The translations under genes and the position numbers were made by a program. DNA of 64,000 nt from Planctomycetia bacterium (GTDB lineage Bacteria; Planctomycetota; Planctomycetia; Pirellulales; UBA1268): NCBI GenBank assembly GCA_046343855.1, contig JBKDMX010000092.1:18214-82213 (forward strand), in the 5' to 3' direction. The notes below the pieces were generated by a model. The model saw only the letters and a program-made list of their open reading frames with translations, had not been told where the DNA came from and searched no databases. Numbering within the stretch: the first letter of the stretch is position 1; every line of letters starts with the position of its first letter. Positions 47,864 to 58,192 of the stretch are shown here, one piece after another.

Positions 47864-48865
47864 ATGCGCCCCGATCCGTCCGATGCACTAGTGTCTCATG
47901 CGAGGGCCGAGGGGGCAGTCTCGACCGATGAGGCGATGAGACTGCTTGGTGTGTCGCGGGCGACCGCCCAGCGCCGGCTCCGGGAACTCGTCGCGCAACA
48001 GCGGCTGGCCCGCGAGGGAGCCGGACGCGGGGCGCGGTATGTGCTTCCGAGCAACCGTTGGGAGCGGCAGCTCGCGGGCCTCGAGGAAGACTCGCTGTGG
48101 CGCGAGGTGCGGACAACACTTGTTGACCTGGGCCTTTCGGACCGGGAGCTCGGCACGGTGGGCTACACGTTCACCGAGATGGTAAACAACGCGATCGACC
48201 ACAGCCGAGGCGACACGTTGCTGGTGACCGCCACCGCATCGCCATCCGGTGTGGTCATCGAGATTTGCGACGACGGCATCGGCGTCTTTCGCTCCGTGCG
48301 AGAATCACAGCGATTGCCCGACGACGTCGAGGCTGTTTTCGTGCTCGAAAAAGGCCGATTCACGACGCAGCCGGAACGCCACAGCGGGGAGGGAATCTTC
48401 TTTGCGTCGAAGGCCGCAAATCGCTACCTGCTTGCGTCTGGCAGGGTGGCATGGATCACCGACAACGAAGCTCACGACACGACGATCCAACTCCAGCCCG
48501 AACCGCGGCGAGGCACCCAGGTTGTCCTCACGTTCATTCCTGGGAGGGTGTTCGCGCTCGCGGACGTGTTTCGGCGTTGGACCGATCCCGACACGCTTGC
48601 ATTCGATCGCACCCGCACGACCGTGCGGCTCGCCGGCTTCGGCGTGCAGCTTTTGTCACGCTCCGAAGCCCGGCGGGTGACGATTGGCCTCGAGCCGTTC
48701 CGCCACGTCACGATCGACTTCGCGGGCGTGGACATGGTCGGGCAGGGATTCTGCGACGAGGTGTTTCGCGTTTTCGCCGCCGCCCACCCCCAGATCGAGC
48801 TTGCCACGGTGGGCATGAATGAAAGCGTGGCGTTTATGGTCGAACGGGCCCGTCGCAAAGCATAG
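47864..48865 (+). CDS. HTH + HATPase_c + STAS-like (DUF4325-type) protein
   Basis: N-terminal HTH (LGVSRATAQRRL), TEMVNNAIDHS, DDGIG, HSGEGIFF, C-terminal SRSEARR, DF.GV..VGQGFCDEVFRVF. Confidence 0.82.
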   Translation: MRPDPSDALVSHARAEGAVSTDEAMRLLGVSRATAQRRLRELVAQQRLAREGAGRGARYVLPSNRWERQLAGLEEDSLWREVRTTLVDLGLSDRELGTVGYTFTEMVNNAIDHSRGDTLLVTATASPSGVVIEICDDGIGVFRSVRESQRLPDDVEAVFVLEKGRFTTQPERHSGEGIFFASKAANRYLLASGRVAWITDNEAHDTTIQLQPEPRRGTQVVLTFIPGRVFALADVFRRWTDPDTLAFDRTRTTVRLAGFGVQLLSRSEARRVTIGLEPFRHVTIDFAGVDMVGQGFCDEVFRVFAAAHPQIELATVGMNESVAFMVERARRKA

Positions 48866-48993: not shown

Positions 48994-50601
<1,608 letters not shown>

Positions 50602-51849: not shown

Positions 51850-53307
51850 ATGAGTGACAGCCTTCTGCAGCGCAGCGTGACGACGGCGGTGGCCCGCAAT
51901 CTGGCCACGACGTCGAAGACCCGGCCGAGGATGATGTCGATCACGCCTCGGCATCTGCTCCATCTCCTGCCCTGGGTGCAGGTGGAGGGGGGCACCTACC
52001 GCGTCAATCGCACGAAGGTGGAGCTCTCGAAGGCGGAGCGGATCGAGATCAGCCCGGCGCCGGACGGACTGTCGTTTGCGCCTGGGGCGCTGCGGAGCGT
52101 GCCCCTCCTCGCGAAGCTGCCCGACTCGGTGCTCGAGCGGATGCAGCAGCGGTTTCGCACGGAGGAGGTGCCGCTCGGCAGCGACCTGCTCATCGAGGGG
52201 CAGGATCGCAGCACGTTCTTCGTGATCGCGCAGGGGCAGGTGGAGATTCTCTCGAAGGGGGCCCATGGCCGTGATCTGCGGGCGGCCCTGCTCACGGAAG
52301 GGGAGTTTTTCGGCGAGGTCGATCTGGTGAGCGACCGGCCGAGCGACATCACCGTGCGCACGATCACGCCCTGCGTGCTGCTCACGTTCTCGCGACGCGA
52401 TCTCGATGCCGTGCTCGATGAACTGCCGAACCTCCGCGACGATTTCAAGAAGGCGATCGACGAGCACCTCGAGCTGCGAAGCACCGTGAATCGCTATGGC
52501 GAGCGCAACATCGACCTCGTCAGCGGCTTCGCGGAAAACGTCGAGATCCCCGAGACGTTCGTCGATTACGCGGCCAACCCCCGGGAATATTCGCTCTCGG
52601 CGATCCAGACCGTGGTCCGCGTCCACACGCGGGTGTCGGACCTCTACAACGGGCCCTACGACCAGCTCGAGGAGCAGATTCGGCTCACGATCGAGGGGAT
52701 CAAGGAACGGCAGGAGTGGGATCTCATCAACAGCCAGCGGTTTGGGCTGTTGCATTCGGTCGATCCCGCGATGCGGATCAGCACGCGGTATGGGGCGCCC
52801 ACGCCCGACGATCTCGACGAACTGCTCGCGCTCGTCTGGAAGAAGCCGGCCTTCTTCCTGGCCCATCCCAAGGCGATCGCCGCCTTCGAGCGGGAGTGCA
52901 CGCGGCGCGGCGTTCCCCCCGTCACCACCATGCTCCACGGCACGCCCGTGATCATGTGGCGGGGAGTGCCGCTCGTGCCCTGCGACAAGCTCGAGGTGAA
53001 GAGCCGGTCGGGCTACAGCCAGTCGTTCGGCACGACGAGCATCCTGCTCTTGCGGGTGGGCGAGGCCGATCAGGGCGTGGTCGGCCTGCATCAGACGGGC
53101 ATTCCTGGCGAGATCATGCCGAGCCTGTCGGCGCGGCTGATGGGGCTCGACAGCCTGGGCGTGGCGTCATACCTGCTCACCAACTACTTCTCACTCGCCG
53201 TGCTCACCGACGACGCGCTCGGCGTGCTCGAGAACGTGGAGGTGGGCTATTACCACGACTACCGTTCCGATGGCCGTACGGCCTACGTCGAGGGATCGGG
53301 CATCTGA
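51850..53307 (+). CDS. Family 2B encapsulin shell protein (SrpI-like, with cNMP-binding-domain insertion)
   Basis: [31 protein letters not shown], inserted CBD (EGEFFGE), IPETFVDY...[43 protein letters not shown]. Confidence 0.92.
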
Positions 53308-54809
53308 TGCACGGCGCGGACGACATCACGAAGGCGGCCCGACAGCTGCTCGCCGACGCGGTCGCCGAGGGGAGTGCTGATCCGCCTTGCTTCCCCACGC
53401 CGGAGCCGCTCGCCCCGGCAGGGCCGCCATCGACCGACCTCTCGGGCGTGCGGGCATTCGTCAGCCGGATCCGCGGCCTTGATCATCTGCAACTCCCGCC
53501 GGTGCGGTTCGATCGGCCGCTCGCGCCCTCGACCGCCGCTGTGCCGCTTGGCCTGGTGGATGTCGGTGTCATCCGCCGCGATTTCCCGATCCTCCGCGAA
53601 CGGGTGCACGGCAAGCCGCTCGCCTGGTTCGACAATGCGGCCACGACGCAAAAACCGCAGGCGGTGATCGATGCCATCGCACACTTCTACACCCATGACA
53701 ACTCCAACATCCACCGCGGCGCCCACACGCTGGCCGCCCGGGCGACCGATGCCTACGAACACGCCCGCCAGACGGTGGCGACGTTTCTGGGCGCGAATGC
53801 CCCTGACGAGATTCTCTTCGTGCGTGGCTGCACCGAGGGGATCAACCTTGTGGCCAACATCCTCGCGCCGAGCCTCTCCCGCGGCGATGAGATCGTGCTC
53901 ACGGAACTCGAGCATCATGCCAACATCGTGCCCTGGCAGATGGTGGCGGAGCGGACCGGCGCGGTGATCCGCGTGGCCCCAATCGACGATCATGGCGACG
54001 TCGTCCTCGAGGCCTACGAGGGCCTGCTCTCGCCCCGCACGAAAGTCGTGTCGCTCTCACATGCCTCGAACAGCCTGGGGACGATCCTGCCGGTGGAGAT
54101 CATGACGGGGCTGGCGAAGGCCCGCGGCGCCCGCGTGCTCGTGGACGGCGCCCAGAGCGTGTCGCACTTCCCGGTGGACGTGCGCAGGATCGGCTGCGAT
54201 TTCTACGTCTTCTCCGGGCACAAGATCTTCGGGCCCACCGGCATCGGCGCCGTCTTCATGACGCAGGAGGCGCAAAGGGCGCTCCCGCCCTGGCAGGGTG
54301 GCGGCAACATGATCAAGGATGTCACCTTCGCCCACACGACCTACGCCGAGCCGCCGGCCAAGTTCGAGGCGGGCACGCCCAACATCGCCGACGCGATCGG
54401 CCTGGGAGCGGCGCTCGACTATGTCACGCGGCTCGGCCGCGAACAGATCGCCGCCTACGAGCACCACCTGCTCGACTACGCCACGGGAAAACTCACGGCG
54501 ATCGACGGCCTCCGGCTCATCGGCACGGCCCGGGAGAAGGTGGGCGTGCTGTCATTCGTGATTCCCGGTCTCGACCCGGTCGAGATCGGCAAGGCGCTCG
54601 ATCGCGAGGGGATCGCGGTGCGCGCCGGCCATCACTGTGCCCAGCCGTCGCTGCGGCACTTCGGCCTCGAGGCCACGGTGCGGCCGTCGCTGGCGTTTTA
54701 CAACACCACCGCCGAGATCGACCGGCTCGCCGATGCCGTGGCCGGGCTCGCCCGCGCGCCGCGGCGCCGCTACGACCGTTCGGAATCGCTGCTGCCGCCC
54801 GTCAGGTAG
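53307..54809 (+). CDS. SufS-type cysteine desulfurase with N-terminal extension (likely encapsulin cargo)
   Basis: FDNAATTQKP, SNIHRGAH, FSGHK (PLP Lys), FEAGTPNI, RAGHHCAQP; about 85-aa Pro/Ala-rich N-terminus; TGATG overlap with the shell gene. Confidence 0.93.
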   Translation: MHGADDITKAARQLLADAVAEGSADPPCFPTPEPLAPAGPPSTDLSGVRAFVSRIRGLDHLQLPPVRFDRPLAPSTAAVPLGLVDVGVIRRDFPILRERVHGKPLAWFDNAATTQKPQAVIDAIAHFYTHDNSNIHRGAHTLAARATDAYEHARQTVATFLGANAPDEILFVRGCTEGINLVANILAPSLSRGDEIVLTELEHHANIVPWQMVAERTGAVIRVAPIDDHGDVVLEAYEGLLSPRTKVVSLSHASNSLGTILPVEIMTGLAKARGARVLVDGAQSVSHFPVDVRRIGCDFYVFSGHKIFGPTGIGAVFMTQEAQRALPPWQGGGNMIKDVTFAHTTYAEPPAKFEAGTPNIADAIGLGAALDYVTRLGREQIAAYEHHLLDYATGKLTAIDGLRLIGTAREKVGVLSFVIPGLDPVEIGKALDREGIAVRAGHHCAQPSLRHFGLEATVRPSLAFYNTTAEIDRLADAVAGLARAPRRRYDRSESLLPPVR

Positions 54810-55468: not shown

Positions 55469-55601
55469 CGGTTTTCGAAATACTCCTGCGAGAAAGTTCG
55501 TAGGTATTCTAGCAGTGGGCGGGTCCCCGGGGACCGATCCCCAATCCCCCGCCCCCCGGCGGTCCTCCCGCCTGACTGTCACCCGCACCCATCAACCAGA
55601 C

Positions 55602-56678
55602 ATGCCCTTCTACGTCGCCGCCGCCGGAACGGTTCGCCTCGCCGCGACGCTCTTTGTGTGGGTGGCGACGGCGGGAGGCCTGGCCGCCGCGGAGGCCACT
55701 GCCCTCTGTGACCGGATCGACCGTGCCCTCGCGCATGCCCGCGACAGCCGGCGGCTCGACGCGGGCGTTCATGGGGCCTGGCAGGTGGTGCACGGCATCC
55801 TCGCCTTCGGCCCCGAGTTTCCGCTGGCCGTCGATGGCAAGACGGTGCCCGCGCTCGACCACCTGCTCGGCGGCGGCGCGATCACCGGCTGGCGGCTGCG
55901 GCCCGGCGACCATGGCGTGATCGCGATCGTCGAGGAGGGGAGCACGACCGGCCAGGGGCATCCCGATCAATGGCTCGGCTATCTGTCGCAGTGTGGCACG
56001 ACCGGCATCCCGCTCGATACGACGCTCCACGTGGCCGGCCGCGACTTCACCGTGAAGGATCTGCTCACGCAGGCGCAGGCCGACATCCGCCCCGGCCAGG
56101 AGGCCACGTGGACGCTGATGGCGCTGGCCACCTATCTGCCGCCTGACGCGGCGTGGACGGCACGCGACGGCACGAAGTGGACGACCGAGCGAGTCGTGCG
56201 GATGGAGGCGGAGAACGATCTTTCCGCAAGTGCCTGCGGCGGCGCCCATCGGCTCTACGGTCTCGTGCTCGCACTGAAGAAACATCTGGCCGCGACCGGC
56301 ACGCCGCGCGAGCGGCTCACCGGTGGCTGGGCGATCGCAGCCGACGTGGTCGACGACGCGGTCGAGCGGGCGCGGGAATTCCAACAGGCCGACGGCAGCT
56401 TCTCGATCCATTCGTTCGATCGACCCGGCACGTCGGCCGACGTGTTTGCGAAAGTGAGCGCGACGGGGCATGTCTTCGAGGTGATCGTGGCAGCCCTCGA
56501 CGACCGGCGACTCGCCGAGCCCTGGGTGACGCGGGCGGCCGACCGGCTCGTCGGATTGCTGGAGCAGACCGCCGACATCGACCTGGAATGTGGCGGTCTG
56601 TACCACGCCGCCCACGGGCTCTTGCTTTACCGGCAGCGGGTGTGCCAAAACCCTGAAATATCCGCTCCGCCCCGTTGA
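55602..56678 (+). CDS. Conserved secreted hypothetical protein
   Basis: Signal-like N-terminus, WQVVHGILA.G, GQGHPDQWL, ACGG.H.L.G, LYHAAHGL; function unknown. Confidence 0.6.
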   Translation: MPFYVAAAGTVRLAATLFVWVATAGGLAAAEATALCDRIDRALAHARDSRRLDAGVHGAWQVVHGILAFGPEFPLAVDGKTVPALDHLLGGGAITGWRLRPGDHGVIAIVEEGSTTGQGHPDQWLGYLSQCGTTGIPLDTTLHVAGRDFTVKDLLTQAQADIRPGQEATWTLMALATYLPPDAAWTARDGTKWTTERVVRMEAENDLSASACGGAHRLYGLVLALKKHLAATGTPRERLTGGWAIAADVVDDAVERAREFQQADGSFSIHSFDRPGTSADVFAKVSATGHVFEVIVAALDDRRLAEPWVTRAADRLVGLLEQTADIDLECGGLYHAAHGLLLYRQRVCQNPEISAPPR

Positions 56679-56689
56679 GCCCGGGTTCC

Positions 56690-58192
56690 GTGCACGGCCT
56701 GATTTTTTTCTACATCCAGAAGTTTGCCGATGAGGCGTCCAAGGGCAACGCATCCTGGGATCCCCTGCGTTCGTCGGTCGCCACGACTTCAAAAAAGTAT
56801 CTGCCATCCGGCGTCTATCCCGACGCCGATGCCGTCCATCTCCTCCAGTCGATCGCCCAGTCAGCCGGCCGCCCGCTGCCGAACATCCTCGAACAGTTTG
56901 GCGAGTTTCTGGCGCCCCACCTCGTGAAGGTGGCCGGGACCCACATCGATCCTTCGTGGCGCACGCTCGACCTGATCGAGCACACCGAGGCGATCATCCA
57001 CGACATGATCCGCTCGGCAAACCCCGGGGCCGCGCCGCCGGTGCTCGAGACCGTCCGCCAGTCGCCCAACGAACTGCACCTCGTCTATACATCGGCCCGC
57101 CGGCTCTGCCCGCTGGCCCTTGGCCTGATGCGAGGGATGGCGAAGCACTACGGCGAGGAGATCGCGATCGAGGAGCCGTCGTGCATGCTCCGCGGCGACC
57201 CCTTCTGCTCGTTCGTGGTGCAGAGCCACGGGCACGAGACCCACACCGCGCGGTCGCCGATGTCAGAGACGATCCAGTTCCTCCAGCCCGACGACTCCGT
57301 GATGCCCACGCTCGCGGGACCACCGCTCCCGTCGGAACCCGCTCCTCGGCTGATGGCCCCGGATGAATCGATGCCGGCCACGATCGGCGGCTATACGGTT
57401 TTGAAGGTGATCGGCCAGGGGGGCATGGGCCGGGTCTATCTTGCCCGCGACGAGCGGCTCGACCGCGATGTCGCCATCAAGGTGCTGCACGTCACGAGAG
57501 CGGGTGATCGGGCCGCTCGCATGCGGTTTCTGCGGGAGGGACGGGCCGCGGCGGCGGTCGAGCACCCGCACGTGATGACGATCCATCAGGTGGGGGAAGA
57601 AAACGACCTGCCGTTCATCGTCATGCAGCGGCTCGAGGGCCAGACGCTCGGGCAATACCACGAACGGCTCGGCAGCGTCGCGCTGCCCGAGGTGCTCCGG
57701 ATCGGCCGGGAAGCGGCCGAGGGGCTCGCTGCCGCCCACAGTCTTGGACTCGTGCACCGCGACATCAAGCCCGACAACATCTTCCTCGCCGGCCCGACGC
57801 GGCAGGTAAAGATCATCGACTTCGGGCTCGCCCGCGATGCCGCCGAGCCCGGGGCGAAACTCACGCTGGAGGGCGCCGTGGTGGGCACGCCCGCCTACAT
57901 GTCGCCCGAGCGGATCGCCGAGCAGGAGATCGACGCCCGCGGCGACATCTTCGGTCTGGGAGTGATCCTCTACGAACTGCTCTCGAACCGGCTCCCCTTC
58001 GAGGGCAAGTCGATGGTGACGGTGCTGGCCGCAATCTCCCGCGGCACGCCCCCCAGGCTCCACGACATCGCCCCGACCGTGCCCGAGGCCGTCTGCAATC
58101 TCGTCATGCGGATGATCGCGCACGACAAGAACGACCGGCCCCAGACCGCCGCCGACGTGGCCGAAGAACTGGCCGCCCTCGCCCACCGGTAG
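56690..58192 (+). CDS. H-NOX (heme NO/O2-binding) domain fused to Hanks-type Ser/Thr kinase
   Basis: MHGLIF start, Y.D, FGEF, IH..IR...P.A.PP, YTSAR (YxSxR), C...GD..C; kinase GQGGMGRVY, VAIK, HRDIKPDN, DFG, GTPAYMSPE. Confidence 0.85.
   Translation: MHGLIFFYIQKFADEASKGNASWDPLRSSVATTSKKYLPSGVYPDADAVHLLQSIAQSAGRPLPNILEQFGEFLAPHLVKVAGTHIDPSWRTLDLIEHTEAIIHDMIRSANPGAAPPVLETVRQSPNELHLVYTSARRLCPLALGLMRGMAKHYGEEIAIEEPSCMLRGDPFCSFVVQSHGHETHTARSPMSETIQFLQPDDSVMPTLAGPPLPSEPAPRLMAPDESMPATIGGYTVLKVIGQGGMGRVYLARDERLDRDVAIKVLHVTRAGDRAARMRFLREGRAAAAVEHPHVMTIHQVGEENDLPFIVMQRLEGQTLGQYHERLGSVALPEVLRIGREAAEGLAAAHSLGLVHRDIKPDNIFLAGPTRQVKIIDFGLARDAAEPGAKLTLEGAVVGTPAYMSPERIAEQEIDARGDIFGLGVILYELLSNRLPFEGKSMVTVLAAISRGTPPRLHDIAPTVPEAVCNLVMRMIAHDKNDRPQTAADVAEELAALAHR

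Follow-up and report, generated by a model that had tools for sequence, protein, structure and literature searches.

According to the sections of a 2022 review available to us, the signaling partners of bacterial H-NOX domains are histidine kinases, diguanylate cyclase/phosphodiesterase (DGC/PDE) enzymes and fusions to methyl-accepting chemotaxis proteins (MCPs) only (PMC8738867). These sections describe H-NOX activation as a shift of two subdomains about a hinge made up of two Gly residues, name a distal Tyr as a requirement for O2 binding, and state that H-NOX loaded with nitric oxide (NO) inhibits the kinase HnoK in Shewanella and Vibrio (PMC8738867). The gene we describe here, located on the forward strand of a 64,000-nucleotide stretch of DNA from a Planctomycetia bacterium (hereafter the window), encodes an H-NOX domain and a Hanks-type Ser/Thr kinase in a single polypeptide. 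In the literature pairing H-NOX or HNOB with kinase or planctomycete, with subscription journals and supplements lying outside the search, we found no description of an H-NOX-Ser/Thr kinase. This agrees with the initial annotation of the window, whose author knew of no characterized protein of this type, and with the other partners given in the available sections of the review (PMC8738867). A known sensor and a known output are joined here in a new and conserved combination.

The window resides on contig C92 of a 3.27-Mb draft genome that comprises 134 contigs and is 95.5% complete; its G + C content is about 0.67. The gene and its product are laid out as follows.

56690 to 58192, forward strand: complete coding sequence of the H-NOX-Ser/Thr kinase, 500 amino acids, GTG start codon at 56690, TAG stop codon at 58190-58192
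56690 to 57232, forward strand: H-NOX (HNOB) domain, residues 1-181, recognized by Pfam, by sequence match to the PDB, by an AlphaFold (AF2) model and by Foldseek
57233 to 57376, forward strand: Pro-rich linker, residues 182-229, predicted to be disordered from its composition and predicted local distance difference test (pLDDT) values, second half variable
57392 to 58147, forward strand: Hanks-type Ser/Thr kinase domain (Pfam residues 235-486), matching Pkinase and PknB

The start position, which reads (V/M)(H/Y)G(L/I)I, is common to all 57 related loci that we collected, and many of these loci carry a stop codon 1-3 codons upstream of it. We therefore regard the GTG codon at 56690 as the true start; the TTG codon at 56675, which would provide a longer protein, is ruled out by the same homologous start and nearby upstream stops. 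The initial annotation had the coordinates and the start exactly right, and the open reading frame (ORF) is real. Its prediction that the protein lacks a transmembrane segment is likewise borne out, as the highest Kyte-Doolittle mean over 19-residue windows of the 500-amino-acid protein amounts to only 1.01. With moderate confidence, we view the protein as a soluble, cytoplasmic, single-chain sensor kinase.

A word-indexed search with the H-NOX part of the protein recovered 333 proteins at E ≤0.001 among 798 candidates of 275-875 amino acids. Both PF07700 and PF00069 are present in 118 of the 120 matches listed; the other two are short proteins of 281 and 291 amino acids. The automated labels of these relatives are generic, such as 'protein kinase domain-containing protein' or 'Bud32/predicted hydrocarbon binding protein'. 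Among the species genomes of GTDB, related genes were found at 57 species-level loci, most of them labeled as metagenome-assembled genomes (MAGs) of Pirellulales, Planctomycetaceae, Planctomycetia or Planctomycetota. Complete two-domain ORFs of 466-589 amino acids are present at 46 of these loci (one of them, L045, with masked bases), eight loci are cut by contig ends, one (L057) contains a frame break, and two hold stand-alone H-NOX genes (L053, 181 amino acids, from a MAG labeled 'bacterium'; L054, 179 amino acids, from a Thermoanaerobaculia MAG). The fused proteins include distant members such as L051 from a Fimbriiglobus MAG, which is 40% identical, and the 589-amino-acid protein of L052. 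Conservation of the whole layout in dozens of genomes places the arrangement far beyond chance. The survey of this architecture across genomes that had been suggested in the initial annotation thus reveals a conserved family of H-NOX-Ser/Thr kinases and not a singleton or one-off.

Two aspects of this collection deserve comment. The frame break in L057 (L057:6001-7465) lies near residue 297, between halves that are each in frame, and reflects either a pseudogene or a sequencing error. Two sets of loci (L008, L023, L034, L039 and L004, L021, L028, L032, L035) are labeled 'uncultured Chitinophagaceae' or 'Candidatus Kuenenia'. As far as their contigs extend, most of them share the upstream gene, the H-NOX-kinase gene and the gene for histidyl-tRNA synthetase (HisRS) with the Pirellulales loci at 60-83% identity, and because of this Pirellulales-type neighborhood we consider these labels to be, in all probability, binning or naming errors.

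An exhaustive search of 1.84 billion cluster representatives (50% identity) yielded 1616 matches at E ≤0.001, 110 of them at E ≤1e-30. Within the best 150 of the 1616 representatives, 22 possess a kinase domain, two are fusions with Pyr_redox_2 and Fer2_BFD, and about 100 are stand-alone proteins. The two Pyr_redox_2 fusions (P0208, 861 amino acids; P0238, 865 amino acids) carry at their N-terminus an H-NOX domain with the Cys triad discussed below, followed by Pyr_redox_2 and a BFD-like [2Fe-2S] domain; judged by these domain matches, an oxidoreductase is a further unusual output of H-NOX domains. We also calculated a quick maximum-likelihood tree of 132 complete H-NOX domains, whose resolution is modest. 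In this tree, 18 fused rows, the query included, fall within one group of 22 rows (Shimodaira-Hasegawa-like approximate likelihood ratio test [SH-aLRT], 93); the four short rows that it also contains lie next to fused rows as close sisters and could be fragments. Another five fused rows are located elsewhere, three of them in one starred clade. The tree is consistent with a single main lineage of fused proteins and, probably, a few additional fusion events.

Within evenly sampled genomes of the phylum, HNOB was matched in 40 of 401; in the order, it was matched in 18 of 201 genomes. In the host's own family, nine of the 15 sampled genomes gave an HNOB match, all in frames of about 500 amino acids. 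A kinase domain was confirmed in the order sample for three genomes (G555, G553, G533), and the other frames of about 500 amino acids are presumed to be fused. A 12.3-Mb planctomycete genome (G104) contains three separate H-NOX-kinase fusion genes (L061-L063), and one genome of the host's own family (G486) has two HNOB matches in frames of about 500 amino acids.

The hidden Markov model (HMM) search with HNOB and Pkinase that had been proposed as a check in the initial annotation finds both domains above their cut-offs in one ORF. HNOB (PF07700) matches residues 3-161 with 94.2 bits (cut-off 25.5; E 1e-26) and covers profile positions 2-162 of 163; in an HNOB profile search of the contigs of the genome, the gene scores 97.6 bits, and no second HNOB match was found in these contigs. 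The possibility that the N-terminal domain is only a generic V4R domain is ruled out, since V4R (PF02830) stays below its threshold (27.4 bits, cut-off 31) and covers only residues 135-178 inside the full-length HNOB match. The nearest solved relative by sequence is the H-NOX protein of Shewanella oneidensis (4u9b, 2kii; E 1.8e-15), with an identity of about 25%; those of Nostoc, Shewanella woodyi, Kordia and Caldanaerobacter/Thermoanaerobacter (Tt H-NOX) come next. A fold search with the full-length protein had matched kinases only, and we consequently rely on a domain-only AlphaFold model built on 108 sequences (pLDDT 93.3; predicted template modeling score [pTM] 0.89). Its best Foldseek match is again 4u9b (TM 0.87), and ranks 1-46 in the list are all H-NOX proteins or beta chains of soluble guanylate cyclase (sGC); the Nostoc, Tt and sGC beta structures come after 4u9b. 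Pfam, the PDB match, the domain model and Foldseek agree that this is a true HNOB/H-NOX domain, and according to the model it has the H-NOX fold with an N-terminal helical and a C-terminal alpha/beta subdomain. The residues in this domain on which our reading of its ligand depends are the following.

56999 to 57001, forward strand: His104, predicted proximal heme ligand, aligned with His103 of the S. oneidensis protein
57086 to 57100, forward strand: Tyr133-x-Ser135-x-Arg137, heme-propionate motif, Y-T-S-A-R, aligned with Y-S-S-P-R of the S. oneidensis protein
57113 to 57115, forward strand: Leu142, where O2-binding H-NOX proteins have the distal Tyr, from the alignment with Tt H-NOX at an offset of 2

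We assessed the conservation of these residues in an orthologue set of 47 proteins (the 46 complete loci and the window protein; about 52-88% identical to the query) and in a wider set of 108 H-NOX domains, mostly stand-alone proteins that are 32-45% identical. The MHGLIF start, the proximal His within IIHDM and the YTSAR motif are each found where the initial annotation had placed them. His104 is kept in all 47 orthologues and in 102 of the 108 wider relatives; Tyr133, Ser135 and Arg137, as well as Arg108, Pro112, Pro116, Pro117 and Gly145, are each present in 47/47 orthologues. Gly71 and Gly145 are kept in 108/108 H-NOX domains. The match to Tt H-NOX (1u4h) pairs query residues 103-163 with chain residues 101-161, an offset of 2 that puts Leu142 opposite residue 140, which we take to be the distal Tyr of this protein. 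The position is occupied by Leu in 46 of the 47 orthologues and by Met in the remaining one; in the wider set, Leu (63), Phe (20), Val (18), Ile (3), Met (3) and Thr (1) are found, and Tyr in none of the 108 proteins. The replacement of the distal Tyr by Leu that had been noticed by eye therefore holds in all but one of the orthologues, and the absence of this Tyr predicts that the domain falls into the NO-selective, non-O2-binding subclass of H-NOX proteins.

The second half of the protein is a kinase of the PknB type. Pkinase (PF00069) matches residues 235-486 with 164.5 bits (cut-off 31.7; E 4e-48) over profile positions 1-254 of 263. M. tuberculosis PknB is its nearest solved relative both by sequence (E 9e-50) and by fold (5u94, TMt 0.92; up to 0.93), with 33-34% identity. 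Its catalytic elements, whose conservation was assessed in 70 family members, are situated as follows.

57479 to 57481, forward strand: Lys264 (VAIK), the ATP-anchoring Lys, invariant in 70/70
57755 to 57778, forward strand: catalytic loop H356-R-D358-x-K-x-x-N363, with H356, R357, D358, K360 and N363 invariant in 70/70
57818 to 57910, forward strand: activation segment from DFG (residues 377-379) to P406-E407, including Thr392, delimited by conservation in the 70 members

Also invariant in 70/70 are G242, G244 and G247 of the Gly loop, E283, D377-F378-G379, T400-P401 and P406-E407, the end of the activation segment reading T400-P-A-Y-M-S-P-E407. Thr392 is conserved in at least 90% of the members and aligns with the first Thr of the 'vtqtaavigt' stretch of PknB. 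The complete Pkinase match and the presence and invariance of all catalytic residues substantiate the intact Hanks kinase of the initial annotation, and by its residues the domain is predicted to be catalytically competent. Leu257 is invariant in the same 70 proteins and aligns with PknB Leu33, which is replaced in the L33D and L33E crystal forms; Leu33 has a role in the dimerization of the N-lobe of PknB. The NCBIfam model PknB_PASTA (NF033483) matches nothing but the kinase part and, at 274 bits, falls short of its cut-off of 450; the protein has no transmembrane segment. A Pfam scan of the protein found no HisKA, HATPase_c or HNOBA domain.

The two domains are separated by a linker in which 10 of the 48 residues (182-229) are Pro and in which, in the full-length model, pLDDT drops below 50 at residues 182-190 and 194-225. 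Its beginning is marked by a conserved motif.

57236 to 57280, forward strand: linker-start motif, residues 183-197, (D/E)-T-H-x-x-x-S-P-L-x-(E/D)-T194-x-x-F, from the alignment of 70 proteins

In this alignment, an acidic residue at position 193 and Thr194 are present in all 70 proteins, T184 in 68, S189 in 61 and H185 in 60; position 197 is Phe in 51 and Leu in 13. Of 22 other fused cluster representatives, 14 carry a looser motif, [DEN]-T-x(0-2)-hydrophobic, in the 35 residues that follow the H-NOX domain, and none of 2000 shuffles (mean 4.6) reached this number; as the pattern was picked post hoc and the sequences are related, we take this as a hint. Mycobacterial Ser/Thr kinases favor a Thr that is preceded by an acidic residue and has a hydrophobic one at +3. 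The resemblance of the surroundings of Thr194 (acidic residue at -1, hydrophobic residue at +3) to this preference leads us to propose Thr194 as a candidate autophosphorylation or pseudosubstrate site.

At the level of sequence, the reading given in the initial annotation is thus supported. These data lend support to a regulatory model in which the protein is a one-component sensor for NO, and possibly for thiol redox state as well, that controls Ser/Thr phosphorylation; on balance, we think this is somewhat more probable than that it is wrong. The H-NOX domain would bind heme b via His104, with Tyr133, Ser135 and Arg137 holding the propionates. Because the distal pocket is apolar (Leu142) and without a Tyr, the ferrous heme should bind NO and exclude O2. 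By analogy with characterized H-NOX proteins, NO binding would shift the two subdomains about the glycine hinge (Gly71, Gly145), and oxidation of the Cys/Zn site described below could re-orient them likewise. The movement would pass in cis via the linker with its conserved Thr-containing motif to the PknB-like kinase, so that autophosphorylation, presumably at the activation-loop residue Thr392, is changed in one direction or the other, and with it the phosphorylation of the putative substrates. The genome encodes a ferrochelatase, which indicates that the host can make heme. With 18 Pkinase matches and 16 FHA matches in the genome, Ser/Thr signaling appears, by domain content, to be well developed in the host.

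Natural two-gene counterparts of the fusion exist in the phylum. Of the 47 places matched in the phylum sample, 44 were fetched (left out were the place in the window itself, a partial one at a contig end in G346 and a weak one in G182), and a frame-wise HMM search located H-NOX domains in 43 of them; in the remaining one (L100), no H-NOX domain was found at ≥40 bits. Five of the 43 are fused to kinases: three in G104 and one each in G008 and G176. The fetched flanks of six stand-alone hnox genes encode a Ser/Thr kinase domain. In three of these cases (L064, L103, L104), the kinase gene is the overlapping downstream gene of hnox; in two (L060, L096), it is a divergent neighbor, and in L093 it lies three genes downstream. 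The H-NOX domains linked to kinases differ in type. Next to the fused domains with their Cys triad, L064 has the triad with Asn in place of Arg137, L103 and L104 have Cys140 only and also Asn in place of Arg137, and L060, L093 and L096 are without the triad. Since the H-NOX and Ser/Thr kinase modules are paired repeatedly across different H-NOX sequence types, they appear to work together; in our assessment, this is the strongest comparative argument for such a cooperation. The fused genes of G008 and G176 (L065:2980-4962, forward strand; L066:2493-4478, reverse strand; G + C content 0.37-0.42) join Ser/Thr kinases to HNOB-like domains that score 44-47 bits with Pfam and, in the alignment, have no proximal His, no YxSxR motif and no Cys triad. 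They may be heme-free derivatives of the same architecture.

For 29 of the 38 stand-alone places, a downstream ORF on the same strand passed our filters. The domains found in these 29 neighbors are HATPase_c (24), HisKA (22), Response_reg (14), HNOBA (10), Pkinase (3), MCPsignal (1) and SpoIIE (1). Pairing with histidine kinases thus dominates in the phylum, and pairing with Ser/Thr kinases is a recurrent minority. The ten HNOBA domains are all carried by histidine kinases, and single downstream neighbors possess a SpoIIE/PP2C-type phosphatase domain and an MCP signaling domain, respectively.

Several observations weigh against the model of an NO-responsive one-component kinase and have to be set beside the data in its favor. 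The usual downstream neighbor of hnox in the phylum is a histidine kinase (24/29). Because six of the 15 sampled genomes of the host's family gave no HNOB match, the gene is dispensable. NirK (copper), NirS (cytochrome cd1) and NO synthase were not found in the 95.5%-complete genome, a result that leaves their absence unproven; with no NO-forming enzyme found, any NO would come from outside the cell. The full-length model, in which the H-NOX part is modeled less well, shows no confident arrangement of the domains (pTM 0.59), and no conserved partner or substrate gene stands out among the syntenic neighbors in the 57 loci. The position of the fourth zinc ligand, discussed in the following, holds Glu162 versus a His or Gln in the characterized site. 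Lastly, the RNA evidence is weak: one exact 265-base contig inside the kinase part was found in one metatranscriptome run, and in another, contigs of a relative with 90-95% identity partly cover the upstream gene and both the H-NOX and the kinase portions. These libraries may contain DNA, stretches without coverage carry no weight, and the runs support no claim of expression or co-transcription.

The alternative that fares best is that the protein responds to thiol oxidation independently of heme. It is centered on a putative metal site next to the heme pocket.

57107 to 57208, forward strand: putative Zn/thiol site formed by Cys140, Glu162, Cys165 and Cys173, from the alignment with the S. 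oneidensis protein

In this alignment, Cys140 corresponds to Cys139, Glu162 to His161, Cys165 to Cys164 and Cys173 to Cys172. A study on these proteins reports that zinc in S. oneidensis H-NOX is bound by Cys139, Cys164, Cys172 and His161, the last being His or Gln in relatives, and that in heme-free Vibrio cholerae H-NOX oxidation of these Cys residues mimics activation by NO (PMC7108781). All three Cys residues are present in each of the 47 orthologues, and in the wider set Cys140 and Cys165 are found in 108/108 and Cys173 in 105/108 proteins. Position 162 is Glu in 44, Gln in two and Asp in one of the orthologues; in the wider set, it is Glu (70), Gln (23), Asp (7), His (7) or Met (1). The likeness to the Zn/redox site of gammaproteobacterial H-NOX proteins claimed by the initial annotation accordingly applies to the three Cys residues and does not extend to the fourth ligand. 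By sequence, the domain is assigned to a large Cys-triad subgroup, whose fourth residue is most often Glu; the Cys3 + Glu site probably binds zinc and may provide a second input through thiol oxidation. A kinase switched by disulfides of Cys140, Cys165 and Cys173 that rearrange the zinc site, with NO in a secondary or irrelevant role, would account for the conserved triad, its alignment with the S. oneidensis zinc ligands, the behavior of the heme-free V. cholerae protein (PMC7108781) and the lack of an NO-generating enzyme in what is known of the host genome. Yet the predicted heme ligands (His104, the YxSxR motif) and Pro117 are equally invariant, which is unexpected if heme were dispensable, and the fourth ligand is Glu instead of His or Gln. 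We consider this purely thiol-based switch unlikely, though with a real chance of being correct, and the heme and redox inputs need not exclude each other. A version of the model that combines both is put forward here only tentatively: a dual-input switch responding to heme-bound NO and to Zn-thiolate oxidation, in which the Thr194 motif (acidic at -1, hydrophobic at +3) serves for autoinhibition as a pseudosubstrate or for autophosphorylation and is exposed or hidden by rotation of the H-NOX subdomains.

A second alternative retains the heme and changes what it reports, be it CO, the redox state of the heme iron or the cellular supply of heme. The last of these would resemble the eukaryotic heme-regulated eIF2-alpha kinase. 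An apolar distal pocket admits CO as well, CO-bound H-NOX structures exist (2kii), and no endogenous source of NO was found in the genome; against this, nothing in the sequence indicates a different ligand, and the available text of the review describes characterized H-NOX proteins without a distal Tyr from organisms other than anaerobes as NO-specific sensors (PMC8738867). We regard such an altered ligand as doubtful. Still less credible, in our view, is a role of the H-NOX domain as a passive scaffold or dimerization module without ligand switching, attached to a kinase that is constitutive or regulated elsewhere. The missing confidence in the interdomain arrangement of the full-length model would fit with it, as would the persistence of the degenerate HNOB-like domains without His and YxSxR in kinase fusions (L065, L066). 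However, the residues of the heme pocket, the hinge and the Cys site are strictly conserved over orthologues that are 52-88% identical overall, the linker motif is conserved, and H-NOX/kinase pairings have arisen repeatedly and independently. Finally, an artifactual fusion, in which a frameshift or assembly error in a MAG has merged two neighboring genes, has a negligible chance of being true, since, despite a draft genome of 134 contigs and the frame break between the domains in the related locus L057, it is refuted by uninterrupted two-domain ORFs in 46 of the 57 related loci from many separate assemblies, by the presence of both domains in 118 of the 120 relatives listed, and by a 1693-base contig over 56087-57779, with 2 differences, from a DNA run not flagged as a possible source of the window.

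The genomic surroundings of the kinase gene contain one neighbor that could be taken for a partner.

55515 to 56678, forward strand: upstream neighbor, 387 amino acids, secreted-looking, ending 11 nucleotides before the GTG codon

This protein has a hydrophobic N-terminus, and its Atlas entry runs from residue 30. No Pfam match was obtained for it; its nearest clusters are planctomycete, share no common Pfam family, and bear automatic names such as 'prenyltransferase and squalene oxidase repeat' or 'ARF-directed GTPase activating protein'. The gene is situated directly 5' of the kinase gene in 47 of the 57 related loci and may be co-transcribed with it. We rejected it as a dedicated partner, since the genes for HisRS (syntenic in 41/57 loci) and a Zn peptidase (31/57) are equally part of the syntenic block and since it is missing beside the distant fused members L051 and L052, where HisRS and the Zn peptidase are not found either; for the same reasons, the shared neighborhood is read as general synteny among relatives. 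HisRS is encoded convergently, 8 nucleotides downstream of the kinase gene, and the vicinity also contains genes for a Zn metallopeptidase, a cysteine desulfurase, a CxxCxxCC protein and RecJ.

DNA corresponding to the gene, in whole or in part, is present in 20 runs from nine studies, which are freshwater, lake-water and plankton metagenomes along with two entries named 'fungus metagenome'; several of these runs may be the source of the window DNA. Elsewhere in the window, the ORF at 51850-53304 (forward strand) encodes an SrpI-like type 2A encapsulin shell protein with an N-terminal cyclic nucleotide (cNMP)-binding domain (E 5.8e-116). It is followed at 52716-54809 (forward strand) by a class-V aminotransferase/cysteine desulfurase whose enzyme part comprises residues 304-671 of a long ORF, and the pair looks like a family-2 encapsulin with a desulfurase cargo. 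A protein with HATPase_c/HATPase_c_2 and a STAS-like DUF4325 (47864-48862, forward strand) adjoins the gene for a sigma-54 activator (AAA+) at 48994-50598 (forward strand).

If the proposed model is correct, sensing of NO, and possibly of oxidants, is linked to Ser/Thr phosphorylation in bacteria, and this in abundant freshwater and marine Planctomycetota. As these appear to lack NO-forming enzymes of their own, the model points to the sensing of NO made by neighboring organisms or arising from water chemistry. The protein would also be a rare instance of a bacterial Ser/Thr kinase for which the sequence allows a prediction of the input signal. Should the dual-input version hold, planktonic Planctomycetota would possess a direct route from NO to phospho-Thr and FHA domains alongside the H-NOX/histidine kinase route. 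According to the available sections of the review, no high-resolution structure of an H-NOX protein bound to its signaling partner has been obtained (PMC8738867). A natural single-chain sensor-effector, together with its natural two-gene versions, makes this question more tractable; because sensor and effector share one polypeptide, the dual-input version, if true, could yield the first high-resolution view of a bacterial H-NOX-effector contact.

How does this protein relate to the established systems? In common with the S. oneidensis H-NOX protein (SO2144; 4u9b, 4u99, 2kii) and its kinase HnoK, it has the proximal His and the YxSxR motif, no distal Tyr, the three Cys residues that bind Zn in the S. 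oneidensis protein, and a kinase as the presumed regulated output. The S. oneidensis protein differs in that it is a stand-alone protein which, as described in the available sections of the review, acts in trans on a phosphorelay histidine kinase (PMC8738867), whereas the domain studied here is fused in cis to a Hanks Ser/Thr kinase and has Glu162 in place of His161. In contrast to HnoK-type systems, moreover, there is neither HisKA nor HATPase_c in the protein, and its neighbors are a protein of an uncharacterized family, HisRS and a Zn peptidase. The beta chain of animal sGC (TMq 0.73-0.80) likewise belongs to a multidomain enzyme, has an N-terminal H-NOX domain of the NO type and signals in cis. 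Its output, however, is a cyclase reached via PAS and coiled-coil segments within a heterodimer, whereas in the planctomycete protein a disordered linker of about 50 amino acids leads to a protein kinase and the Pfam scan gave no HNOBA domain. Tt H-NOX, which is fused to an MCP (1u4h, TMq 0.75), is also linked in cis to its output. It is membrane-bound and binds O2 via the distal Tyr, as stated in the same sections of the review (PMC8738867); the protein described here has Leu142 at this position and no transmembrane segment.

On the side of the kinase, the catalytic motifs, the activation-loop Thr and the Leu257/Leu33 correspondence are shared with PknB-type kinases such as M. tuberculosis PknB and PknA, Staphylococcus aureus Stk1 and Streptococcus pneumoniae StkP. 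These kinases reside in the membrane and carry extracellular PASTA sensors C-terminally, whereas the sensor considered here is cytoplasmic, N-terminal and of the heme type. The split hnox/Ser-Thr kinase pairs (L064, L103, L104; L060, L093, L096) link the same two modules; they differ in consisting of separate polypeptides and in having other H-NOX sequence types, several without the Cys triad. Ser/Thr kinases governed by a heme-binding region (HRI) or by a Cys-metal redox motif (M. tuberculosis PknG) are functional analogues only, as their sensor folds are unrelated and neither possesses an H-NOX domain. By sequence and fold, the protein described here belongs to both the H-NOX and the Hanks kinase families. 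Its mode of action would parallel those of the H-NOX/HnoK pair and of sGC; it falls outside the HnoK-type, MCP-type and PASTA-kinase systems.

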